A DNA stretch of 63,926 nucleotides, counting the filler, from Collodictyon triciliatum (taxonomy: Eukaryota): NCBI GenBank assembly GCA_043381765.1. It is 19 parts of 19 records of this genome, joined end to end, with 100 filler letters (N's around TTAATTAATTAA, not from the genome) between each part and the next. Parts side by side here need not be neighbours in the genome. Positions count along the whole stretch, not along the records: positions 3,624 to 7,145 come from JBHJMP010007208.1; positions 7,246 to 10,766 come from JBHJMP010007209.1; 17 more parts are not named here. One strand, 5' to 3'. Position numbers and translations under genes: made by a program. Shown here piece by piece: positions 3,524-36,256 of this stretch (its first letter is position 1; each line of letters begins with the position of its first letter). A model generated the notes under the pieces. That model saw only the letters and a list, made by a program, of their open reading frames with translations, made no database searches and was not told where the DNA came from.

Positions 3524-3623
3524 NNNNNNNNNNNNNNNNNNNNNNNNNNNNNNNNNNNNNNNNNNNNTTAATTAATTAANNNNNNNNNNNNNNNNNNNNN
3601 NNNNNNNNNNNNNNNNNNNNNNN
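3524..3623. other. Artificial contig spacer N44-TTAATTAATTAA-N44 (first of 18)
   Basis: The same 100-bp unit recurs at ~7146, 10767, 14388, 18009, 21631, 25252, 28870, 32488, 36106, 39724, 43341, 46956, 50572, 54187, 57802, 61416 and 62758. TTAATTAATTAA gives stops in all six frames. Confidence 0.97.
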
Positions 3624-3708
<85 letters not shown>

Positions 3709-4771
3709 TTGGGAACAAAAAAAAGATTGAGCACTAGCCATCGACTCACGGGTAGCAAGATGAGTATGACTATAATGCTCAGTGTTAGTAGCTCTGATTC
3801 ATTCATCTGTATCTTTTTTCTTTTTCTTTTCTTCTTCGGTATCATTCAGTCTGTAAATGGATAAACTTCATTACAAAAGTTGTGACGAACTTGGTTTTAT
3901 CCCTTTCAAGACACACCACATTTTTTACATCAAAAGTGTACTCATATATAACATTTTATTGCACAGACAACCATTAAATTAAGTCTGGATTGACGAAAGC
4001 AGGAGTTTTGATGAATTCAAGAAAGAACCGAATAATATAATAGTATGATTAGTATATATCATAAGATTAAAAATACTTTATAATCTCATTTTATTCCTAT
4101 AATTAATTTATATTTTATTTTCCATTATGCAATGCTATCGTTAAAATTCAAATACAAAAAAATTACAAATAATTTGTTGTCTTGGCCCAGACAGAACCCA
4201 CGCTGTAAACCTGCGACCAAACATGCATTTCAAAAAAGTACACAATCCACACTTGCGGCGGTAATCATGTTGTTTGGGGCCGATATCTTGACTTTCGGTC
4301 GCGATGGCTATACGGCCGTCCTTTCGAACTCGCCGAATCGGCTCTCAGCGTTTTGTCTCAAATCACTTATAAAAAACTTGTGTGTTTGTTTGCCACAATG
4401 CGCACGTTTTGAAAGTCTCGGTAGATGCTTAATTATATAAATTGATTTTGTGCAGTTTTTTTTATTTTATTAAATCGACTGATTGACTCAAGTTTTATTA
4501 AGATTGAAAGCTCGGTAGTTCTCTAAAGGAAAAAGTAAAACAAAGACTTTCAGAAAAAGAAAAGAAACCGCCTTGAGTCTGAGAATCTAAAGTCTGTAAA
4601 ACCAAACAATCGAAATGTAAAAACATCTCTAAAGTCGATTGTAAAGAATGCGGATGATTATGACACAATCAACGATACGGTTTTACTGTGTCATAATTTG
4701 GTTACAGACGCTTATCTCTTTGCAAGATGTTACATACTGATATCGCAACAACTCTCAACAATCGATGAAAT

Positions 4772-4772
<1 letters not shown>

Positions 4773-4832
<60 letters not shown>
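4773..4832 (+). repeat. 60-nt poly-T run inside the Fanzor coding region
   Basis: Lies between ..TIDEM and LYALKTVG and shifts the frame. Confidence 0.85.
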
Positions 4833-4833
<1 letters not shown>

Positions 4834-5580
4834 TACGCTCTTAAGACAGTCGGAATAGTTTCATAAGATATCCGCAAGATTAAAAAAAAATATCCAGAAA
4901 TGAGAGACGACATGATGACTTCTTTTCTCAATGATTTTCGATATAATTTGTCCCGATAAGAACGCTTTCCGTTGTTTGAACTGTCTCATTATTACCGTAG
5001 TTGGTGAAGCAAATGTTGACAGCTTATCATAATAACATTAAGGAACATTCTGTAAAGAGGTTATTGTGCTTTATAAATCAAACAGTTCCTAAAGATGAGA
5101 ATATTACGGAAGCTACTAAAAAGGCAGAGTTACGAAAGTTAAAAAAAAAAGTCATCTTCAAGAAACTCAAAATACCGGAACAATATAAATAATGGGCTAG
5201 AATCCATTTGCATCATATTACTACCGGCGATATTGTAAGTGGTATCAAATATGACGTCAAAGTTAATCCAAATAAGTACATTCCGTGTCAGCTTTACATG
5301 AATCACATTTATGAGGACATTGGAGCCAAACTGTTTCAACCAATCTCTGTAAGAACTACCAGTATACCATGCCATATTACTCAAGAAACTGCATGTTTGA
5401 TAAGTCTAAGCATCAACTGGAAAAACATCATTAATGGAGAATATATCAGGATGCAAAGAGACATATGGGATTATTTCTTTGAAATGAAGAATATGGTCTT
5501 TCATCAAAGAGACTACAATTTTAAACACATAATACAAACAGACGGCGATTGGCGGTGTCATTATTATTTGAAAGAAAGGT

Positions 5581-5713
5581 GACTTCTTTCCGGTGCTACC
5601 CTCTCCACGGTAGTGTCTTCTCCTACTCGCGTTTGCTCTCTCCCATGCGCTACATCCCGCCCCTTTGTATGGCATAACCTCGCTACACTTTGAATCGAAT
5701 AAAGGAAAAAAAA
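5581..5713 (+). mobile_element. 5'-truncated LINE 3' end inserted into Fanzor, with A-rich tail and 18-bp TSD
   Basis: ATTATTTGAAAGAAAGGT occurs at 5563-5580 and 5714-5731. The insert closely matches the reverse complement of 10108-10243 and 46409-46545. Confidence 0.9.
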
Positions 5714-6639
5714 ATTATTTGAAAGAAAGGTATTTCAAATTCAAAATCCAAATATAACCAAAAACCCCAAGAATATGTTTATATAGATGAACTTTCCGAA
5801 GAGCAGTTATCTTTATTAGCGAAATAAAATAATAGTTGGAGTGAACGCAGGCAAGTTTAATTTGGTTTACATGGTGGATAAGACAGGTAAGAAATCACGT
5901 TACACGGCTCACCAAAGAAGACGTGATAGCAAATCTCTTAAAAATCGAAATAAACTCTTGCGAGAGAAAAGAAAAATACAATGCTTCAGGGATATGGATG
6001 GCAACAGATTAACAAAGTGCTGTTTCTTTTGGTCCCCTGACTTTTGAAGAGAATCAGCAGTTTGAGACATCAAGAGTATCTTTAATCGATTTAGACACAT
6101 AACTGAGTAGACATAATACATGCACGGTCGATTATGAAAAATTTCGAAAACATGTATCTATGAAATCAAGATACCAGACAGAATTATTCAGATTTTATGA
6201 ACAAGTAACTTTTCGAAAAATGAGATGGGGACAGGATGTTAATACAAAAAGAAGTGGAGAATTGCTTATGGGCCGAATCGAAAAGACATTCGGCAAGGAT
6301 GTTGCACTGGCGTATGGAGACTGGAGCAGAAAATGTCAGGTGAAACATTATATGGTAATAATCGTAAGAGGATTACGAAAAATACTGTCCAAACATTTTG
6401 AAACAGATACTGTAGATGAATTAAAAACGTCCAAGATGTGTTGTAACTGCGAAAAAGAACTGGAATATATGAAACTGAAAGGAAATACAAAAAAAGGTTG
6501 TATAGATGCCTCATATGTAAGGAATGTAATCGCTCAGAAAGCAAACAAAGTGTATTCTTGACAAGGGACTTTAACAGCGCTAATGATAGACTCAAGAAAG
6601 TTCTTTTATTCCTTCAAAATATGCATACACCTTCCTCTA

Positions 6640-6753
6640 AAAAACAGGCTGTCGGGTCTTTCCTGGCAGCCTTCACCACTGCACAATCTTTGTGAAAAAA
6701 GTGGTGCGACCTTGGATACTAGCAGAACAGGTTAACCCATCGAAGGGATGGTG
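6640..6753 (+). ncRNA. Candidate Fanzor omegaRNA scaffold (copy 1)
   Basis: 10-bp stem GGCTGTCGGG/CCTGGCAGCC (6647-6671) and stem CACCACT/AGTGGTG (6674-6706), both conserved in copy 2. Overlaps the ORF 3' end, as is typical for TnpB/Fanzor. Confidence 0.6.
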
Positions 6754-9700
6754 GATGAAGATAGTAAATAAAATAATAACAAACAATATATACATCAAAG
6801 CCAACATCCCCACCGTCCTGCACAAAAATTGAAAGGAAGAATAAAAACAAACAAACAAACAAACAAACAAACAAACAAACAAACAAACAAACAAACAAAC
6901 AAACAAACAAACAAACAAACAAACAAACAATATATACACAAAAAAGATAATGTTAGGAGTTTATTTGGTCGTCCCTATTTCGTGGAGCCTTATGCGATGG
7001 TGGGGCTGGCTTGATAATCATTTATTTATTCATTTATTGTTCTAATTTCCGGGTGTGAATCGGAAACTTCAGAACGCCTAGAGCCCTTCAGGGATTTCGC
7101 TTCAATAGGCAATAAAGAACACATAGCCATTCTTCAGTAGCCTTGNNNNNNNNNNNNNNNNNNNNNNNNNNNNNNNNNNNNNNNNNNNNTTAATTAATTA
7201 ANNNNNNNNNNNNNNNNNNNNNNNNNNNNNNNNNNNNNNNNNNNNAATGATAATGATAATGATAATGATAATGATAATGATAATGATAATGATAATGATA
7301 ATGATAATGATAATGATAATGATAATGATAATGATAATGATAATGATAATGATAATGATAATGATAATACTCTTCGAATGAAGAATTAATCAACATTTTG
7401 AATGAAAAATAGAAATAAATATGACTTCATACTACTGCACCTTGGATTGTTTGTCCAAATTGTTTTAATGTGGGGTGCGTTTCCATTAACCAGTCCGCTC
7501 TTTATGGAGAGCCCCTGTGAAGGTTGCTACTTGCTTGAGCAGTGCTGGTTCTTCCATAGCTCCATGTGGTTGGGTTTAAAAGGGTTGGCATTGTCTTTCT
7601 ATACTTGACTGCTCAGTCTGTGAGTATTTGTGGTGGAGTTAACTATAATTTTTTCTTTTGGCTTTTTCCTTGTGTTCTAGCACGGATTATGAAAGAGAGA
7701 GGGAAACGTACCATGCACGTTGATTTTCTTTTTTATACTTCGATTAGTTTTGATGCCAAAACTCGACAAGCACATCACTAAACAGAATATTTATTAACCT
7801 TTGAAGTAAACTGCGGAAAATAGGAGTTTTGTTTTTCATGTACCTTCAATTTTGGCCTTGATGAACCCAAGAGGAATACTGCAGATAATGGATAGCATAA
7901 AGCTGGCCTCTCTTGATGTGGGCGAAAGAAGAAAATGAATGATTAAGTACTATTTAGCTCTATTTTTTCCAATTCTTTTTTTTGGAAAAGTCTGCTTCGT
8001 ATTCTTGAGGTTGGTCGAATAGCTGTTTGATAGTCTTCTCATTGTGGCACTCAATATCTTTCAGGGCTTGGGCTTATTCTTTCCTTGCCTGTTTGTGGGC
8101 GTGGTAGTTTTGGGCAGTTTGTGCTTACCTCGAAGGCGGACGTGGCAGCTGTGTCCATACAAGTTCTGCTTCTGGGCGCTCTTTGATCGGCGAATAGCTG
8201 CAGCTGGGAAGCTTTGGTCGAGCGGAAGACTCTATTCTTATGCTCGGTTTTGTTTACTTCAAGCCAGCGGTTATGATCTCCACGGCGTTCTTCCGTATAA
8301 ACAATTGAAAAATGGAAAAGAAAACAAAAGAGAAAGGATAAAATAAAGTCATGATACGTTAGATTTGTGACGTATATGCGGGTCATCGAATGAAAACAAA
8401 AATAGGAAATATTAATTGATTGAGACAACCTTCATGTCTATTCTATCAAAGACATTCTTATTCGGTTCTTGGTTGTCTTTGTGAGTAAGAGAGGGAAAAC
8501 CCCCTTGGATTGAGCGCGTGAAAGCAACGACCGGTGATCGGCTGGAAATATGCCCCGTGGTGGCCTAGAAAAACTAATAAATGCACAAAAAGTCGATCAG
8601 CAGCAAATGCCGAATGTCATTGAATGAAAAAACCGAAAAGAATGAGGGGATTGTGGGGGGTGGGAAGAATGGTTAAGGTGAAGGACAGCTGTCACGGCAA
8701 AACATCAGGAAGCAAAAAGGGATTGTGATTAGAAAAAAAATGAGTAACAAGATTGTCAGAAAATCAATCTTGGTATTCCAGATTAGGATAATCTGCATGA
8801 CAAAATCATTACTATGTCCATATATAGATTACCATCTTGATATTTTCCTTTATATTTCTTTTTTTGGATTTAGTTGATGGGGTAAGGGTGGTTTTGGGTT
8901 TGTTAAATCTACACCTGCGCCAAGAAAAAAGAAAAAATCAGTGCATGAGCCCCAGTAAATATCTCATCCACGCATTCATATTCATTTGGATAAAACACTT
9001 CATGCGCCTTACCATACACCAGAAAAAAGGCAGCCAAAGCGAGGCAATGATTTATATGGTTGAGTATGAGCTGTTGCCGAGTGTTTATTTCCAGCCGAGT
9101 CGGGCGGAAAGGGTGATGATATCATAGGCGGCAAACTGTGAGGCGAGGGTGTTTCGATCAGGTAGTTGTTCTTGAGTAATATGTATATTATAATGATGGA
9201 ATTTGCATAGAATGAGAGACTTCTTTCATGTTAAACGTAGATATCAGCTCGGCAAGGACACCTATCCGTTTCATGATAAATAGACACAGCTAGCAAATTA
9301 TGGTGATTGCAAAATTAAAATTCATCTTACGCACAAAAAAAAATTGATAAAATAGAAAAGACAGGTTCTGAAGTCTGCAGGAATGGACATCGCTATGATG
9401 TATCAAGCTTTGATTGGTTATGAAAAGCAAAGTGAAATTGAACAGAACTTAATTGTATTTTTGCTTCATTGGCATATTGATTTCTTTGAATAAAAAAAAA
9501 AACAAATTGAAAAAATTTACATGAAAATAGCAATTCATATAAATATATAGAATGTGGTTTTTCTATTACATACCAGCCCCGTGGCGTTCAATTTTAACAC
9601 ACCGAATGTATGAAATGAATTTTTATTATTTATTCTTTGAATTTTATGGACAACATTGAGACTTCTTGTTTCTCATACAATAACATATCCCAACACCCCA

Positions 9701-10107
9701 CAAATCGTTCCTGAGACCATCTCTTCATATCATCGGAAAAACTAGGAGAAGTTCATCCATCCAACCCTCACCCACGTTAAAGGCAGCAAATCGAGCTGTT
9801 CCCTTTCCCTTGGGTGTTTTGTCTCATGCCATTTTACCTTGTCCTTCGTAGAATTCAAAGTAGGAGATAAAGTTAGCGAAAATCAGGCACAAAAGGTCAT
9901 ATATTCATACATGTGTCTTATTTTGATATAAAAATAATTCAAAATATGACTAAATGAAGTCTATTCGAATATTAAATCTCTTAAAAATAGCCATATCATC
10001 TTCGGTCGGTAGCTGATATTTTGGTATTAAATCATCGTTTTCTCCGACATTCGGTTTAGGTTCTTTTTACTCAATAATGGTGATCATTCATCATTAATGA
10101 AACGAAG

Positions 10108-10766
10108 ACTTTTTTCCTTTATTTATTCAAAGTGCAGCGGGGTTATGCCATACAAGGGGTCGAGATATTAGCGCGTGATAGAGAGCAAACGCGAGTAAGA
10201 GAAGACACTGCCGTGGAGAGGGTAGCACTGGAAAGAAATCAGTGATAGCGAGTTGGTCAGGTGGGCGACCCAACTGGTTGATTGGCTGCGTGGGTAGAAG
10301 GGGTTGGATATGATGTGGGAGATATCGCACGACACATTCCCACATCTCTCTTCGCTTGCGGTCAGAGTAGCGAAGAATGCGAGCGTATTTCATCAGTTTG
10401 TTCAGGAAGCTGTATTGCACGAGGCTTTCAAGCCTGGATACATTGATTTCTCGTTCGGATGAATCATTGGAGCGAGAGAATGCACGCACACTCCATAGGG
10501 ACCACAGCATATGTCCCCTTGTGACTGTCCAGAGTATTCTAGAGTCGCGGGTCATTTGGTATTGTGCGCCAAACAGGATGTCGGACGCACTGAGTCGATT
10601 GGGAGCATAATCAAGCTCAGAGAGCATCTCGTGGGTAGACTCTGTCACTTTTTGAGCAAGGGAGCACTTCACAAATGTGTGTTCGATAGAGTCATCTCCA
10701 CTATGGCACATGGTGCATTCTGGAGAGGTCGTTGCTGCATGGACTACACGCACACCTATCCACAGC
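10108..10766 (-). mobile_element. L1/Tx1-like non-LTR retrotransposon 3' end (ORF2 C-terminal zinc knuckle, 3'UTR, A tail)
   Basis: ORF 10127-10753 contains CTMCHSGDDSIEHTFVKC (zf-RVT-like CCHC) and LWSLWSVR. Ends TTTGAATAAATAAAGGAAAAA; repeated elsewhere in the window. Confidence 0.85.
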
Positions 10767-30749: not shown

Positions 30750-32412
30750 ATTTTTCTTTCCTTTATTCGATTCAAAGTCACACAAATTAGCCTTTAATAC
30801 GATACAGTTCGATTGTCTGGACTCACAAGGAAGGAAAAAAACGCATTATGTGAGCTTTTTTTCCTTTATTCGATTCAAATTTCAGCAAGGTCATGCCATA
30901 CAAAGGGGCGAGATAGGTGCGCATGGTAAAGAGCAAACGCTAGTAAGAGAAGACACTACTGTGGAGGGGCTAGCAAATGCATCATGTGAGCTTAATGTGC
31001 ATAGCAGCTGCCTTAAAGCGGAACGGAGATGTGGATGACGAAGTCATTTACGAGTTTCAGTTACTAGTCCCCCAATAGAAGCTGGTGCAAGTCTCCCAGG
31101 GCTTTGATGAGAGGGTAAAATGGTTGCGTAAGTTCCCTTTCGCTCTTGTCTAGCAAATCCTGTCATGAGGATGAATAGGTTGAGTAAGCTGCTCCTCTTG
31201 GTTTCCAGTTCCTGGGACATCATTTACCAACATTTCTACAATGATTGCTGATGAACGAGGGTCTTGGATGTATCCAGGGGGTTTGCTACAGATTAGCCTG
31301 GTGGATGTGTTATTACTGGGTCCCTCGCACACTATTCTGATTCTGTCGCCGAGTTGACGTGGGCTTCTCTTTGATCAGCATCCTCTTTGTTATTCGGAGG
31401 TGAGTTTGATGGGATATCAACAGCTTGAAAAAGTTCATAATATTGAGGGCTGACGATGTTTTCTACATTGCTATGATGGAGCGATTTCATTGCATCATCT
31501 CCTCCATATTCTGGCGAGTTTACATCAGCAGGTTCAAGCGAATGGACAGGTGATTCATCAATGCGCTCGGCATACATATCAAGTTTGGGGCCGTTCATCA
31601 CCCGATGGCTTTACAGTCACTTCGAGCACCTCGCCTGTGGGTATGCAGTCACTATTTTCCCTACTTCTTGGCATCGGGCGATGCTGTCTCCTTACCTTGG
31701 ACCTTGAGGTTGTGCTGCAGACGGTTTTTGCGCACACGAGTCACAAATACCTGGTCAAGCTTCAGTACTGAATAGGTTATCGTTTCTGTGTGTCACAAAG
31801 CGCGTTTGGTATCGCTTTGGTTGTTGCGGGCTACTTAATTGGCAGTGGTTTACCGGATGTTTTTCTTTTCTTTTTTCCACCAAGGAGCTGAATGGTATTC
31901 TAATTGCGGAAATTAATTATAATGTACAATTGGTGCCTGTTTCTGATCAAATTTTTTTACATTTGCTGTACATTTCAATGTGCATCATTTGATTCCCAGT
32001 AGATATAGTGGTTGTCTCACCTTCCTACTCATATGTCTATATTCAGTGTAAATCTTGGGTGGGTTGCGATTTGGCAACGGTTTCTATTAATAGGTAATGA
32101 CCTATATCAATCAATGTGCAGATTTATCGGAAGCCTAAAAACGGCGTACAAATGTGGACCTTTGATATTGGGGCGGTTGCTTTGCTGTGGGTTTGGACGG
32201 CCGCACAGGCGACTCCCACCGCACAAGAAATCCGCCGGGTGAGGCCCTGAAACAGCAAAACTGGAACAGGGATTCCGGTCATTGAAAAAATAGTTTACTC
32301 TCCACTACTGTGTCTCATTGGCAGGGTTGGACAAAGCATATTCTGCCACTTTTGTTTTCGTGAAAGAATAAGCACGACAAACGAGCTCTCCTCCCAATCC
32401 TCTGCTGGGAGG
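30750..32412 (-). mobile_element. Putative decayed non-autonomous retroelement ending in the LINE terminal motif
   Basis: 3' end reads CTTTGAATCGAATAAAGGAAAGAAAAA on the minus strand at ~30750-30778. Interior has broken ORFs (31150-31601). 5' limit uncertain (near contig end). Confidence 0.4.
30858..30974 (-). mobile_element. Second ~117-bp LINE 3'-end insertion with imperfect TSD
   Basis: AAACGCATTATGTGAGCTT (30839-30857) versus AAATGCATCATGTGAGCTT (30975-30993). Insert matches the LINE 3'UTR. Confidence 0.8.
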
Positions 32413-32587: not shown

Positions 32588-33598
32588 AAAGCCAAAATAA
32601 AAAAAAAAAAAAAAAAAAACAACAACCAAGAATATGTTTATTTCATTGAACTTTCCAAAGACCAGTTATCTTTATTAGCGACAAAAAAAAATATAGTTGT
32701 AGTGGACGCAGGCAAGTTTAATTTGGTTTACATGGTGGATGAGACAGGTAAGAAATTATGTTACACGGCACACCAAAAAAGACATGATAGCAAATCTCTT
32801 AAAAATCACAAAATACTCATGCACTAGAAAAAAAAAGTACAATTCTTCAGCGATATGCATGACAACAGGTTTACAAAATGATGCTTCTTTTGGTCTCAGG
32901 GCTTTTGAAGAGAATCAGCAGTTTGAGATATCAAGAGTATCTTTCATCGATTTAGAGACATAACTGAGTGAGCATAATTCATGCACGGTCGATTATGAAT
33001 AATTTCGAAAATAAATATCTATGAAATCGAGATACTAGATGGAATTTTCCAGATTTTATGAACAAGTAACTTTTCGGAAGGTGAGGTGGAGACATTATGT
33101 TAAAACAAAAAGAAGTGAAGAATTATTTATGGACCGAATCGAAAAGACATTTGGCAAGGATGTTGTAGTGGCGTATGGAGACTGGAGTAGAAAATGTCCG
33201 ATGAAACATTTAACGCCAACAACCAGAAGAGGGTTTCAAAAAATACTATCCAAAAGTTTTGAAACAGTTAGTGTAGATGAATTTAGAACCTCCAAGATGT
33301 GTTGTAACTGCGAAAAGGAACTGGAATATATGAAACTGAAAGGAAATTCAAAAAATATGTGTATAGATGTCTCATATGTAAAGAATGTAATCGCTCAGAA
33401 AGCAAACAAACTGTGTTCTTGACAAGGGACTTTAACAGCGCTAATAATATGCGCAACAAAGTTCTTTTTATCCTTCAAAATATGCTACACCTTGCTCTAA
33501 AAAACTGGCTGTCGGGTTTTTCCTGGCAGCCTTCACCACTACACAATCTTTACGAAAAAGTGGTGAGACCTTGGATAGTAGCGCACCAGGTTTACTAA
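32588..33598 (+). pseudogene. Fanzor1 copy 2, C-terminal half (RuvC plus zinc finger), decayed
   Basis: IVVVDAGKFNLVYM, FYEQVTFRKVRW, AYGDWS, VDEFRTSKMCCNC, YRCLICKEC and TRDFNSANN. Collinear with 5760-6695. Confidence 0.9.
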
Positions 33599-33611
33599 TC
33601 TTTCGATGGTG
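33500..33611 (+). ncRNA. Candidate Fanzor omegaRNA scaffold (copy 2)
   Basis: Same stems as copy 1 at 33507-33531 and 33533-33566, plus terminal GCACCA/TGGTGC pairing. Confidence 0.55.
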
Positions 33612-34339
33612 CACCCCTTCTTGTATTGAATATATTACAGACACTCCCCTCATAAATTTGAAAAAATTCCGTTTTTATTTAAATTCCAGAATTGTGATTC
33701 TAACAAAATTTGAATATTTAAACACACAACCTTGCGTTCGGCAAGGAGATGCGGAGATCGTTTTCTTCCAGGTTTTTTTTTACCCTAATTCTCAGAGCCC
33801 TCCTTGCGTTCTTTGTAATACAAGCACTCCTGACGTTCGAACGGAACGGTGTTCCTTGAATCAATGCGCAATACAAGTACAGCAGAGAAAATTGCAGAAA
33901 AAAAAAAGAAAGAAAAACAGAGAGAACAGGAGAAAAGAAACACAAAACCAAACCAAACAGATATTACAACAATAAAGACAAGAAAACGGGTCACCCAAAA
34001 AGGAGAGGATCCACAACGAGGGACAATGTCACCTTCGCTTCAGTGTCAACGCCCACCACCACCATCATCAAATCACCATCATCAAATCACCATCATCAAA
34101 TCACCATCACCAATATCATCACCAATATCATCACCAATATCATCACCAATATCATCACCAATATCATCACCAATATCACCATCAAACCATCACCAAATCA
34201 CCATCAAACCATCATCGAATCATAATCAAATCACCACCAATATAATCATCAATATCCCCATGCCCATTATCCTGCTGCACACAGACACCCACACCGGAGG
34301 GGAGAAGCCACGACAGCAAGAGCGACAAAGCACAGCCCG

Positions 34340-35359
<1,020 letters not shown>

Positions 35360-36256
35360 CTTCTGCTCGCCCAGCTTTGCTGTGGGTTTGCATGTGTGTC
35401 ATGGCTTTTTTTCTCCTTTTTTTTCCCTCTCTCTCCCTCTCTCCCTCCTTACTTCGCTGTTGGCACCTTTGTCATCGGGCGTAAATTATGCAGATACCGC
35501 TACTCAACACCTGTGTCACTCTTCTCTGTCTTGGCCAGCAAACATATTCTTTGGCTGCGCTGGTTGGCTCTGTCGCGCGTGTGTTGTCACTGTGTGTGAG
35601 GTGTATGATGAGTGTGCTAATGTGCAATCTTCACTTTGCGTTGACTCTCAAGCCTTCCAGACCCCATGAACATCCAAGAGCAGGAGCAAAAAAAAAAAAA
35701 AAGAAAGTGTGTTGATAAAATGATTTAAAGGAAAAAAAAAAGATATACGAGGGAAAATGCGAATCAGAATTTAAGTGATCCAAAGAGAAATAAGAAAAGA
35801 GAAAATAATTGGAAATCATGTTGTGGTCAACTTCTGTGGATCAAATTCTCCAGATTCAAGAAAAACCAAAAAACCAAAAAAACCAAAAAACCAAAAAACC
35901 AAAAAAACCAAAAAACCAAAAAACCAAAAAACCAAAAAACACAAAAAACACAAAAAACCAAAAAACCAAAAAACCAAAAAACCAAAAAACCAAAAAACCA
36001 AAAAACACAAAAAACACAAAAAACACAAAAAACACAAAAAACACAAAAAACACAAAAAACACAAAAAACACAAAAAACACACAAAAAAAACACAAAAAAA
36101 AAAAANNNNNNNNNNNNNNNNNNNNNNNNNNNNNNNNNNNNNNNNNNNNTTAATTAATTAANNNNNNNNNNNNNNNNNNNNNNNNNNNNNNNNNNNNNNN
36201 NNNNNGTTTTTTATGTTTTTTTATGTTTTTTTATGTTTTTTATGTTTTTTTATGTT

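Follow-up and report, generated by a model that had tools for sequence, protein, structure and literature searches.

A probable omegaRNA 3′ module at the right end of two decayed Fanzor1 copies in Collodictyon triciliatum

Introduction

Can the 3′ end of a broken Fanzor gene still be recognised as the scaffold of a guide RNA? The question is raised by a stretch of 63,926 bases from Collodictyon triciliatum (hereafter the window), which consists of about 18 pieces of ~3.5 kb joined by N44-TTAATTAATTAA-N44 linkers, and in which two copies of a repeat, on different pieces, carry the same hairpins up to the same right boundary. An earlier note, made from the sequence alone, had proposed that this region is the scaffold of an omegaRNA, followed by a guide that differs from locus to locus. 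By sequence, we assign the open reading frame (ORF) of the repeat to the Fanzor1 (Fz1) family of eukaryotic TnpB-like genes, and we consider that positions 6640-6753 and 33499-33611 are probably the omegaRNA 3′ module of such a gene, which today would be a mere relic or could serve in trans only.

Fanzors with 3′ guide RNAs are already well documented, both from eukaryotes and from their viruses (PMC10432273, PMC10530073, PMC11423790). The SpuFz1 element is described as ~2.1 kb long, with a 75-nucleotide (nt) scaffold across the right end and, beyond it, a variable guide of 14-15 nt, and the RNA of GtFz1 is reported to overlap 17 codons of the C-terminal coding sequence (PMC10432273). In the omegaRNAs of GtFz1, SpuFz1 and PpFz1, the first stem-loop (SL1) is given as seven base pairs, and the part beyond SL1 is described as variable and apparently little constrained (Xu et al. 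2024, PMC11423790). Viral and eukaryotic Fanzor RNAs (fRNAs) alike are reported to arise from the 3′ region, hard against the right end, in genomes that are said to hold up to 122 Fanzor copies (Jiang et al. 2023, PMC10530073).

Results

Conserved hairpins up to a shared right boundary

Copy 1 of the element lies at 4554..6753 on the + strand of piece 3624-7145, and copy 2 at 32588..33611 on the + strand of piece 32588-36105, with its 5′ side cut by the piece edge at 32588; the two are about 87% alike over 5768-6753 and 32620-33611. By segment, their identity is 87% over 5768-6639, 92% (61/66) over 6640-6706, 74% (34/46) over 6707-6753 and 40% (19/47) over 6754-6800. Because identity falls to 40% past 6753 in copy 1 and 33611 in copy 2 (+ strand), from 74-92% before, we regard the shared right boundary as real, and homology between the copies does not continue well past it. 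The earlier note was right that both copies end in GATGGTG (6747-6753 and 33605-33611) and that the flanks beyond are unrelated, with GATGAAGATAGTAAAT following in copy 1 and CACCCCTTCTTGTATT in copy 2.

Four hairpins of the + strand occupy the space up to this boundary. Stem-loop A (6647..6671; copy 2, 33507-33531) has 10 base pairs (bp), including two G-U pairs, between arms GGCTGTCGGG (6647-6656) and CCTGGCAGCC (6662-6671), placed at 33507-33516 and 33522-33531 in copy 2. As had been claimed of this hairpin, then called stem 1, its arms are identical in the two copies and only the loops differ (TCTTT and TTTTT). It lies inside the ORF tail, directly 5′ of a TTCAC motif, and may be either a 5′ portion of the scaffold that is peculiar to this lineage or a structure outside it, in which case the scaffold may be about 80 nt long rather than the 110-130 nt proposed earlier. 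The TTCAC motif and stem-loop B follow at 6672..6706 (copy 2, 33532-33565). Here again the previous description of a kept stem with a varying interior (stem 2) was borne out, as the 7-bp arms CACCACT (6674-6680; copy 2, 33534-33540) and AGTGGTG (6700-6706; copy 2, 33559-33565) are identical, whereas the interior carries three substitutions and one indel. By analogy with tested Fz1 omegaRNAs, TTCAC with stem-loop B is most likely the candidate equivalent of SL1.

Stem-loop C (6708..6733; copy 2, 33567-33592) pairs GACCT with AGGTT and adds two inner pairs around a variable interior; its pairs are kept in both copies according to RNAalifold, with one change from U-A to U-G. Stem-loop D (6735..6752; copy 2, 33594-33610) pairs ACC(C)ATC with GATGGT, so that a helix adjoining the boundary takes in the final bases of the element, and shows one change from C-G to U-G in the same RNAalifold consensus. 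The earlier note had let the terminal GATGGTG pair upstream with a different partner in each copy. Upstream pairing stands in both, but the separate partner GCACCA in copy 2 is not needed: GATGGT finds a partner common to both copies, which reads ACC-ATC in the first and ACT-ATC in the second; the two versions differ by a single C-to-U change that gives a G-U pair, and pairing with GCACCA would use a base beyond the boundary. The candidate guides, at 6754..6773 (+) in copy 1 and 33612-33631 in copy 2, are placed by position alone, in flanks that are unrelated; of their 12-mers, one from copy 1 recurs in the window, at 42288, and none from copy 2, to which we attach no meaning.

Stability, strand and the placement of substitutions

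The 3′ stretches of 114 nt (copy 1) and 113 nt (copy 2) fold at -40.6 and -37.7 kcal/mol, with z-scores of -3.43 and -3.69 and not one of 200 shuffles as stable. RNAalifold predicts four helices with 30 pairs for the two copies together, at a consensus energy of -33.9 kcal/mol. When the element was divided into 16 overlapping windows of 115 columns, none had a lower energy, and the next in rank stood at -19.1. Folded as antisense, the same stretches reach -31.3 and -27.6 kcal/mol (z -1.3 and -1.4), and this weak antisense signal, together with the two G-U pairs in stem A, argues that the structure belongs to the sense strand.

Seventeen substitutions separate the copies in the last 114 nt, and they fall on 2 of 60 paired positions as opposed to 15 of 52 unpaired ones (Fisher p 3e-4), in a test that is post hoc, the structure having been derived from the same alignment. 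Both of the substitutions at paired positions retain a G-U pair. When the 17 substitutions were placed at random, the observed RNAalifold energy was reached in 1.0% of 1000 trials. Both copies therefore show what is expected of an omegaRNA in two respects: a conserved sense-strand structure with a 7-bp first stem-loop, and a position at the 3′ end up to the right end with locus-specific sequence beyond, the latter seen in two copies only.

The repeat is a Fanzor1 element

A search of 1.84 billion representatives with the 152-amino-acid (aa) fragment encoded at 6103-6558 found 1227 relatives at E<=1e-3, 280 of them at E<=1e-10, and the full-length relatives are mostly 600-700 aa long. Against the solved Fz1 proteins, the 127-aa piece of copy 2 (33039-33419) gives E values of 1.7e-11 (PpFz1), 3.4e-5 (SpuFz1) and 3.5e-4 (GtFz1), and one of the full-length relatives, P0003 (634 aa), matches SpuFz1 at 9e-37 over residues 14-607, PpFz1 at 7e-34 and GtFz1 at 7e-16. 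In Pfam, the pieces from the window give only a sub-threshold match to Cas12f1-like_TNB (E 0.017), a family found above threshold in two of the seven relatives scanned (P0014 and P0022). The relatives and the matches to the solved Fz1 proteins identify the ORF of the repeat as a Fanzor1 family gene.

The 96-aa ORF tail found one close protein, P0105, which is likewise a broken fragment; a close-relative protein scan and a 26-nt coding pattern each found nothing in the genome contig and viral contig collections. A scan of metagenome contigs with the stem-1 pattern gave 11 loci, which we rejected as chance matches because none continues with TTCACCACT.

Both copies are decayed

Translation gives ORF remnants in three frames with in-frame stops in copy 1 and a frameshifted, stop-broken ORF in copy 2. 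Aligned by tblastn with P0003, copy 1 holds residues 2-64 at 4554-4739, 133-415 at 4989-5975, 412-554 at 6064-6492 and 556-610 at 6492-6656, and lacks about 68 residues (65-132) around a poly-T tract. Copy 1 is further broken by a retroposon of 133 bp that resembles a short interspersed nuclear element (SINE-like; 5581..5713, +), ends in an A-run and has on either side of it one copy of a duplicated 18-bp target (5563-5580 and 5714-5731). In the runs X2 and X5, contigs join across this insertion, for example from 5571 to 5722. The retroposon lies outside the omegaRNA and marks copy 1 as dead. Given frameshifts and in-frame stops, and in copy 1 also the retroposon and the missing residues, both copies are Fanzor1 pseudogenes.

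The differences between the copies over 6103-6558 are spread evenly over codon positions (18, 22 and 22 substitutions), and 41 codons differ non-synonymously as opposed to 11 synonymously, which is the pattern of neutral decay; the reading frames of the two copies diverge after a 1-nt indel. In copy 1 the RuvC-I Asp has become Asn (GVNAG). Copy 2 retains VVVDAG, DEFRTSK, TRDFNSA, CCNC and CLICKEC, placed by eye against the columns of relatives and not by a scored alignment, and a GDWS motif was also seen in the translated pieces. Among 26 relatives, the columns D372, E530, D581, C537 and C564 are invariant and C540 nearly so.

The element is highly repeated elsewhere, with 489 contigs of X2 and 467 of X5, both small runs, and 85 of X3 matching 4500-6835 at a likeness of at least 80%. 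The left boundary of copy 1 may lie near 4490, as hinted by the loose end of two X3 contigs before 4503.

Some further observations concern copy 1 and the run contigs that cover it. A segment with a 61-T run, 4752-4891, lies where residues 65-132 of the relatives would be expected, single X2 and X5 contigs skip 4718-4899 and 4752-4891, and the segment may represent another insertion, one in the reverse orientation. Left of 5580, X2, X3 and X5 contigs continue unlike the window, as loose ends, as if other copies of the retroposon were longer at their 5′ end. The depth of run contigs over 6684-6835 is below that of the element body; contig depth cannot rank parts of the element, and we draw nothing from it.

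A related 3′ module in giant-virus Fanzor1 genes

Through P0153, a 634-aa relative, we reached giant-virus contigs in IMG/VR. Alignment-based scans found 469 and 511 relatives, from which 79 and 80 loci were retained, in sets that overlap in contigs (loci L019-L177). The Fz1 proteins of these loci are 37-46% alike to the 152-aa piece from the window, so no viral locus is a close copy of it. The contigs hold a large clade of intact Fanzor1 genes. Fifteen of the first 79 loci lacked an anchor (nine had no GTCTTTCAC-like motif, four no RuvC-III in the longest ORF and two no end motif), and the remainder collapsed to 49 distinct 3′ regions. Alignment A4 has 48 rows (L087, with a long GC-rich insert, being excluded), and A5 has 36 distinct rows of the 5′ module.

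All 49 non-redundant putative scaffolds have GTCTTTCAC and a hairpin at the start and GGTGTA(A) at the end. Their order is GTCTTTCAC, a hairpin of mostly 7 bp, the linker AAAAAGTWAGACCATC, the stop codon, a small hairpin, CTATTGATTTTACA and a variable hairpin, and the terminal GGTGTA(A) pairs back with an upstream TTACAC. The length is about 116-155 nt, of which ~65-80 nt extend past the stop codon. In a second set of viral loci, TTTCAC is present in 59 of 62 distinct 3′ regions. Covariation is seen in the first hairpin and in an outer GUCU/AGAC helix: pairing is kept in 94.8% of 386 cells, double-sided changes occur in 5 of the 11 pairs (44 cells), and the covariation score is 0.314, compared with 0.097 for shuffles (none of 500 as high) and 0.046-0.107 for slid controls. 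The hairpin retains G-U variants (UG in 5 cells, GU in 6). At the right end, mean pairwise identity drops from 72% in the last 26 nt to 32% in the next 25 nt, a loss of likeness seen at 49 of 49 distinct flanks. On this evidence from sequence we infer that the viral regions encode scaffold RNAs.

In the window, CTTCAC directly precedes the 7-bp stem B, and one viral type also carries TTCACCACT. A descriptor of this module (TTCAC, then a hairpin of at least 7 bp with at most one G-U pair and a loop of 8-25) matches 28 of the 49 viral scaffolds, and 50 shuffled windows gave a mean of 2.2 matches with a maximum of 7. From the viral sequences alone we built two covariance models, R1 with 51 positions and 11 pairs and R2 with 137 positions and 15 pairs. 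A BLASTP comparison of the ORF tail of the window (AAFTT...RKSGETLD) with the viral tail (LTFT...EKVGQSVD) found nothing.

The viral loci showed several features of their own. The TTTCAC motif of the RNA module also encodes SSFT, a conserved peptide of the ORF tail. In L019 (4298-4451), L020 (4298-4450) and L102 (3026-3182), which form the viral sub-clade closest to the window, an extra hairpin stands just 5′ of (A/T)TCAC as a positional analogue of stem A, and its arms run from CCGTG/CACGG through CTGTG/CACAG to TAGTG/CACTA by synonymous third-position changes, as judged by eye in three sequences. A small conserved ORF of 101 aa, coiled-coil-like, lies at 2129-2434 of L029 and ends ~65 nt before the Fz1 start codon. 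It has an equivalent in many of the loci L027-L097, and the conserved end ...NI before the stop was seen in many loci. The L029 ORF matched no Pfam family above cut-off, and the viral small ORF showed no likeness to the window ORF at 4132-4440.

Other features of the window

The linkers lie at 3524-3623, at 7146-7245 and onward each ~3620 bases, and a run of 562 N occupies 58504-59065. Since the window consists of joined pieces and is no continuous locus, distances between features on different pieces carry no meaning. The DNA has a eukaryotic look: GC content is 38% and microsatellites are numerous. Long ORFs encode WD40, GT61, SPRY and DnaJ-C domains. The WD40-repeat genes stand at 24676-25251, in tandem 126-bp units whose DNA is 88-91% alike, and at 54717-56906 (- strand), as an open frame of 729 aa. 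The SINE-like repeat is present in four pieces, its copies lying at 5581-5713, 10110-10241, 30856-30975 and 46407-46544. A further repeat of 552 bp, 89.7% alike between 10104-10654 and 46406-46955 on two pieces, is in part this SINE-like element.

Discussion

We favour the view that 6640-6753 and 33499-33611 hold the 3′ module of a Fanzor1 omegaRNA. In copy 1 the scaffold is best read as 6672-6753, perhaps from 6640, with the guide from 6754 onward, on the grounds of position, structure, strand and the SL1-like module. In working elements, the region from the 3′ end of the ORF to the right end would be transcribed in sense, and the transcript would fold into a scaffold bound by the Fanzor protein and extend about 14-21 nt into the flank, which would become the guide. 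Stem-loops C and D would then take up the remaining bases as far as the boundary at 6753, and stem-loop A would be either an added 5′ hairpin or outside the RNA. Transcription, protein binding, the use and length of the guide and the target-adjacent motif (TAM) are all proposed here by analogy with the tested Fanzors. As both ORFs are broken, these loci can make no nuclease, and the RNA would be a relic, unless an intact copy elsewhere supplied the protein for it to work with.

Of the scaffold reading put forward in the earlier note, the parts that hold are the Fanzor1 ORF, the 3′ position up to the boundary, the sense-strand structure and the module of TTCAC with a 7-bp hairpin; covariation and recognition by viral models are the parts that do not. 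Several results weigh against the reading. The note had looked to RNAalifold for covariation across copies, but none of the 30 pairs shows compensatory changes between the two copies, and two pairs show one-sided changes that keep the pair. The last 46 nt, adjoining the supposed guide, are the least conserved at 74%. When stem A is left out, the remaining 82 and 80 nt have z-scores of only -1.6 and -2.1, so it is stem A, 5′ of the SL1-like hairpin, that provides most of the exceptional stability. The placement of substitutions makes a weak test, as 2 other of the 16 windows reach 0.02, and the minimum free energy of copy 2 by itself is matched in 6.8% of trials. The descriptor of the TTCAC module was chosen after the data had been seen, and in the window it matches not only both copies but also two AT-rich places on the other strand. 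With filters off and E values up to 10 admitted, neither R1 nor R2 gave a match at 6640-6753 or at 33499-33611, so homology between the scaffolds of the window and the virus is not demonstrated; the window is also without the viral outer helix and conserved linker, and what we claim is accordingly a shared module and not membership of the viral family. Rfam gives nothing at gathering score, and its two antisense matches (E 1.9 and 7.5) are at chance level. When 3724-4600 was searched for sequence that repeats the right end, whether inverted or direct, the scores were at shuffle level, and since the left part is kept only in copy 1, the left end and TAM are undefined. Finally, neither copy has an intact reading frame of ~600-700 aa.

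The alternative that survives best, though we think it unlikely, is that the region has no function, being only what neutral decay has left of the C-terminal coding tail and 3′ end in a dead gene, with hairpins that are kept because the copies are young. The even spread of substitutions over codon positions, the dominance of non-synonymous changes and the lack of compensatory pairs all agree with it, as does the sliding-window control with its value of 0.02 in two other windows; and although 34-44 unchanged stem bases at 87% identity would be a ~1% event by chance, the stems were picked after looking. What youth of the copies can account for is conservation, and not the origin of a fold that is strand-specific, is the most stable of the element by 15 kcal/mol, and sits where the family encodes its RNA, including the TTCAC and 7-bp module. 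Because that origin is left unexplained, decay without function is better read as what remains of an omegaRNA, and in that form it belongs to the reading we favour. Less likely still is that the hairpins are cis-acting DNA features of the transposon right end (recognition or hairpin sites) with no guide-RNA role, which would suit their place in the last 110 nt up to a sharp boundary and the terminal 7 nt, which are the same in both copies although the 40 nt before them vary, a pattern common to many transposon tips, but which is opposed by the far better fold of the sense strand with G-U pairs in stem A, by the G-U variants kept in the equivalent viral hairpin (UG 5 and GU 6 cells), by the failure to find a matching structure or inverted repeat on the left side, and by the reported use of this very region as omegaRNA in tested Fanzors (PMC10432273, PMC10530073); the two roles are in any case not mutually exclusive.

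Within the omegaRNA reading, one bolder version deserves mention, improbable as we hold it to be: that selection keeps the 3′ modules of dead copies as dispersed trans-acting omegaRNAs, with guides derived from their flanks, for a few intact nucleases in a genome where copies of the element are very numerous. It is suggested by the neutral decay of the ORF set against substitutions that spare the stems (2 of 60 versus 15 of 52; 1.0% of trials), together with the 489 and 467 run contigs. Such modules would resemble the ORF-less 'ghost' loci of S. punctatus, but would have arisen by decay.

If the RNA is real, it would add one more Fanzor1 lineage, in a eukaryotic genome and related to the large giant-virus clade, with a compact scaffold of about 80-110 nt that is wired differently around the common TTCAC and 7-bp hairpin. 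The locus could then be of use for tracing the changes of omegaRNA scaffolds around an SL1 that persists, and it may help to find an intact editor in the same genome. The known picture of Fanzors is unchanged, both loci being dead copies.

Comparison with known systems

One likeness is to the omegaRNA (also termed right-end element RNA, reRNA) of TnpB in IS200/IS605 and IS607 elements and to the fRNA of the Fanzor2 ApmFNuc, which are described as following the same logic of a scaffold at the 3′ or right end, a guide from the flank and a TAM in the left flank (PMC10530073). These systems differ from the window in that their proteins are prokaryotic or Fanzor2 and their scaffolds are others, and no Rfam family matches the window.

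Another is to the GtFz1 omegaRNA of Guillardia theta, which, like the hairpins described here, overlaps C-terminal coding sequence (17 aa) and has a 7-bp SL1, in a longer scaffold reported as about 150 nt with four stem-loops (PMC10432273, PMC11423790). Of the three solved proteins that match the window, GtFz1 is the farthest removed (E 3.5e-4).

SpuFz1 of Spizellomyces punctatus is alike in having a Fanzor1 protein of similar size and an RNA at the 3′ end of the element that reaches the right end (Saito et al. 2023, PMC10432273), and in that account it occurs in many full, partial and ORF-less copies. Its RNA is described as a 7-bp SL1 followed by one more stem-loop (PMC11423790), in place of the three or four hairpins of the window. 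Inverted repeats of 30 nt are reported for Spu-1, with a CA preceding the left end, and the RNA of SpuFz1 is placed after the stop codon (PMC10432273), whereas in the window no inverted repeat was found, the hairpins overlap the ORF tail and both ORFs are broken.

The putative Fz1 scaffolds of giant viruses share several features with the window: TTTCAC with a hairpin of mostly 7 bp, an end that pairs back upstream, a sharp right boundary and unrelated flanks. The two nevertheless differ in what surrounds this module, as the outer helix GUCU/AGAC and the linker AAAAAGTWAGACCATC are found in the viral scaffolds only, and the sequence 5′ of TTCAC in the window has its pairing partner farther upstream, in stem A.

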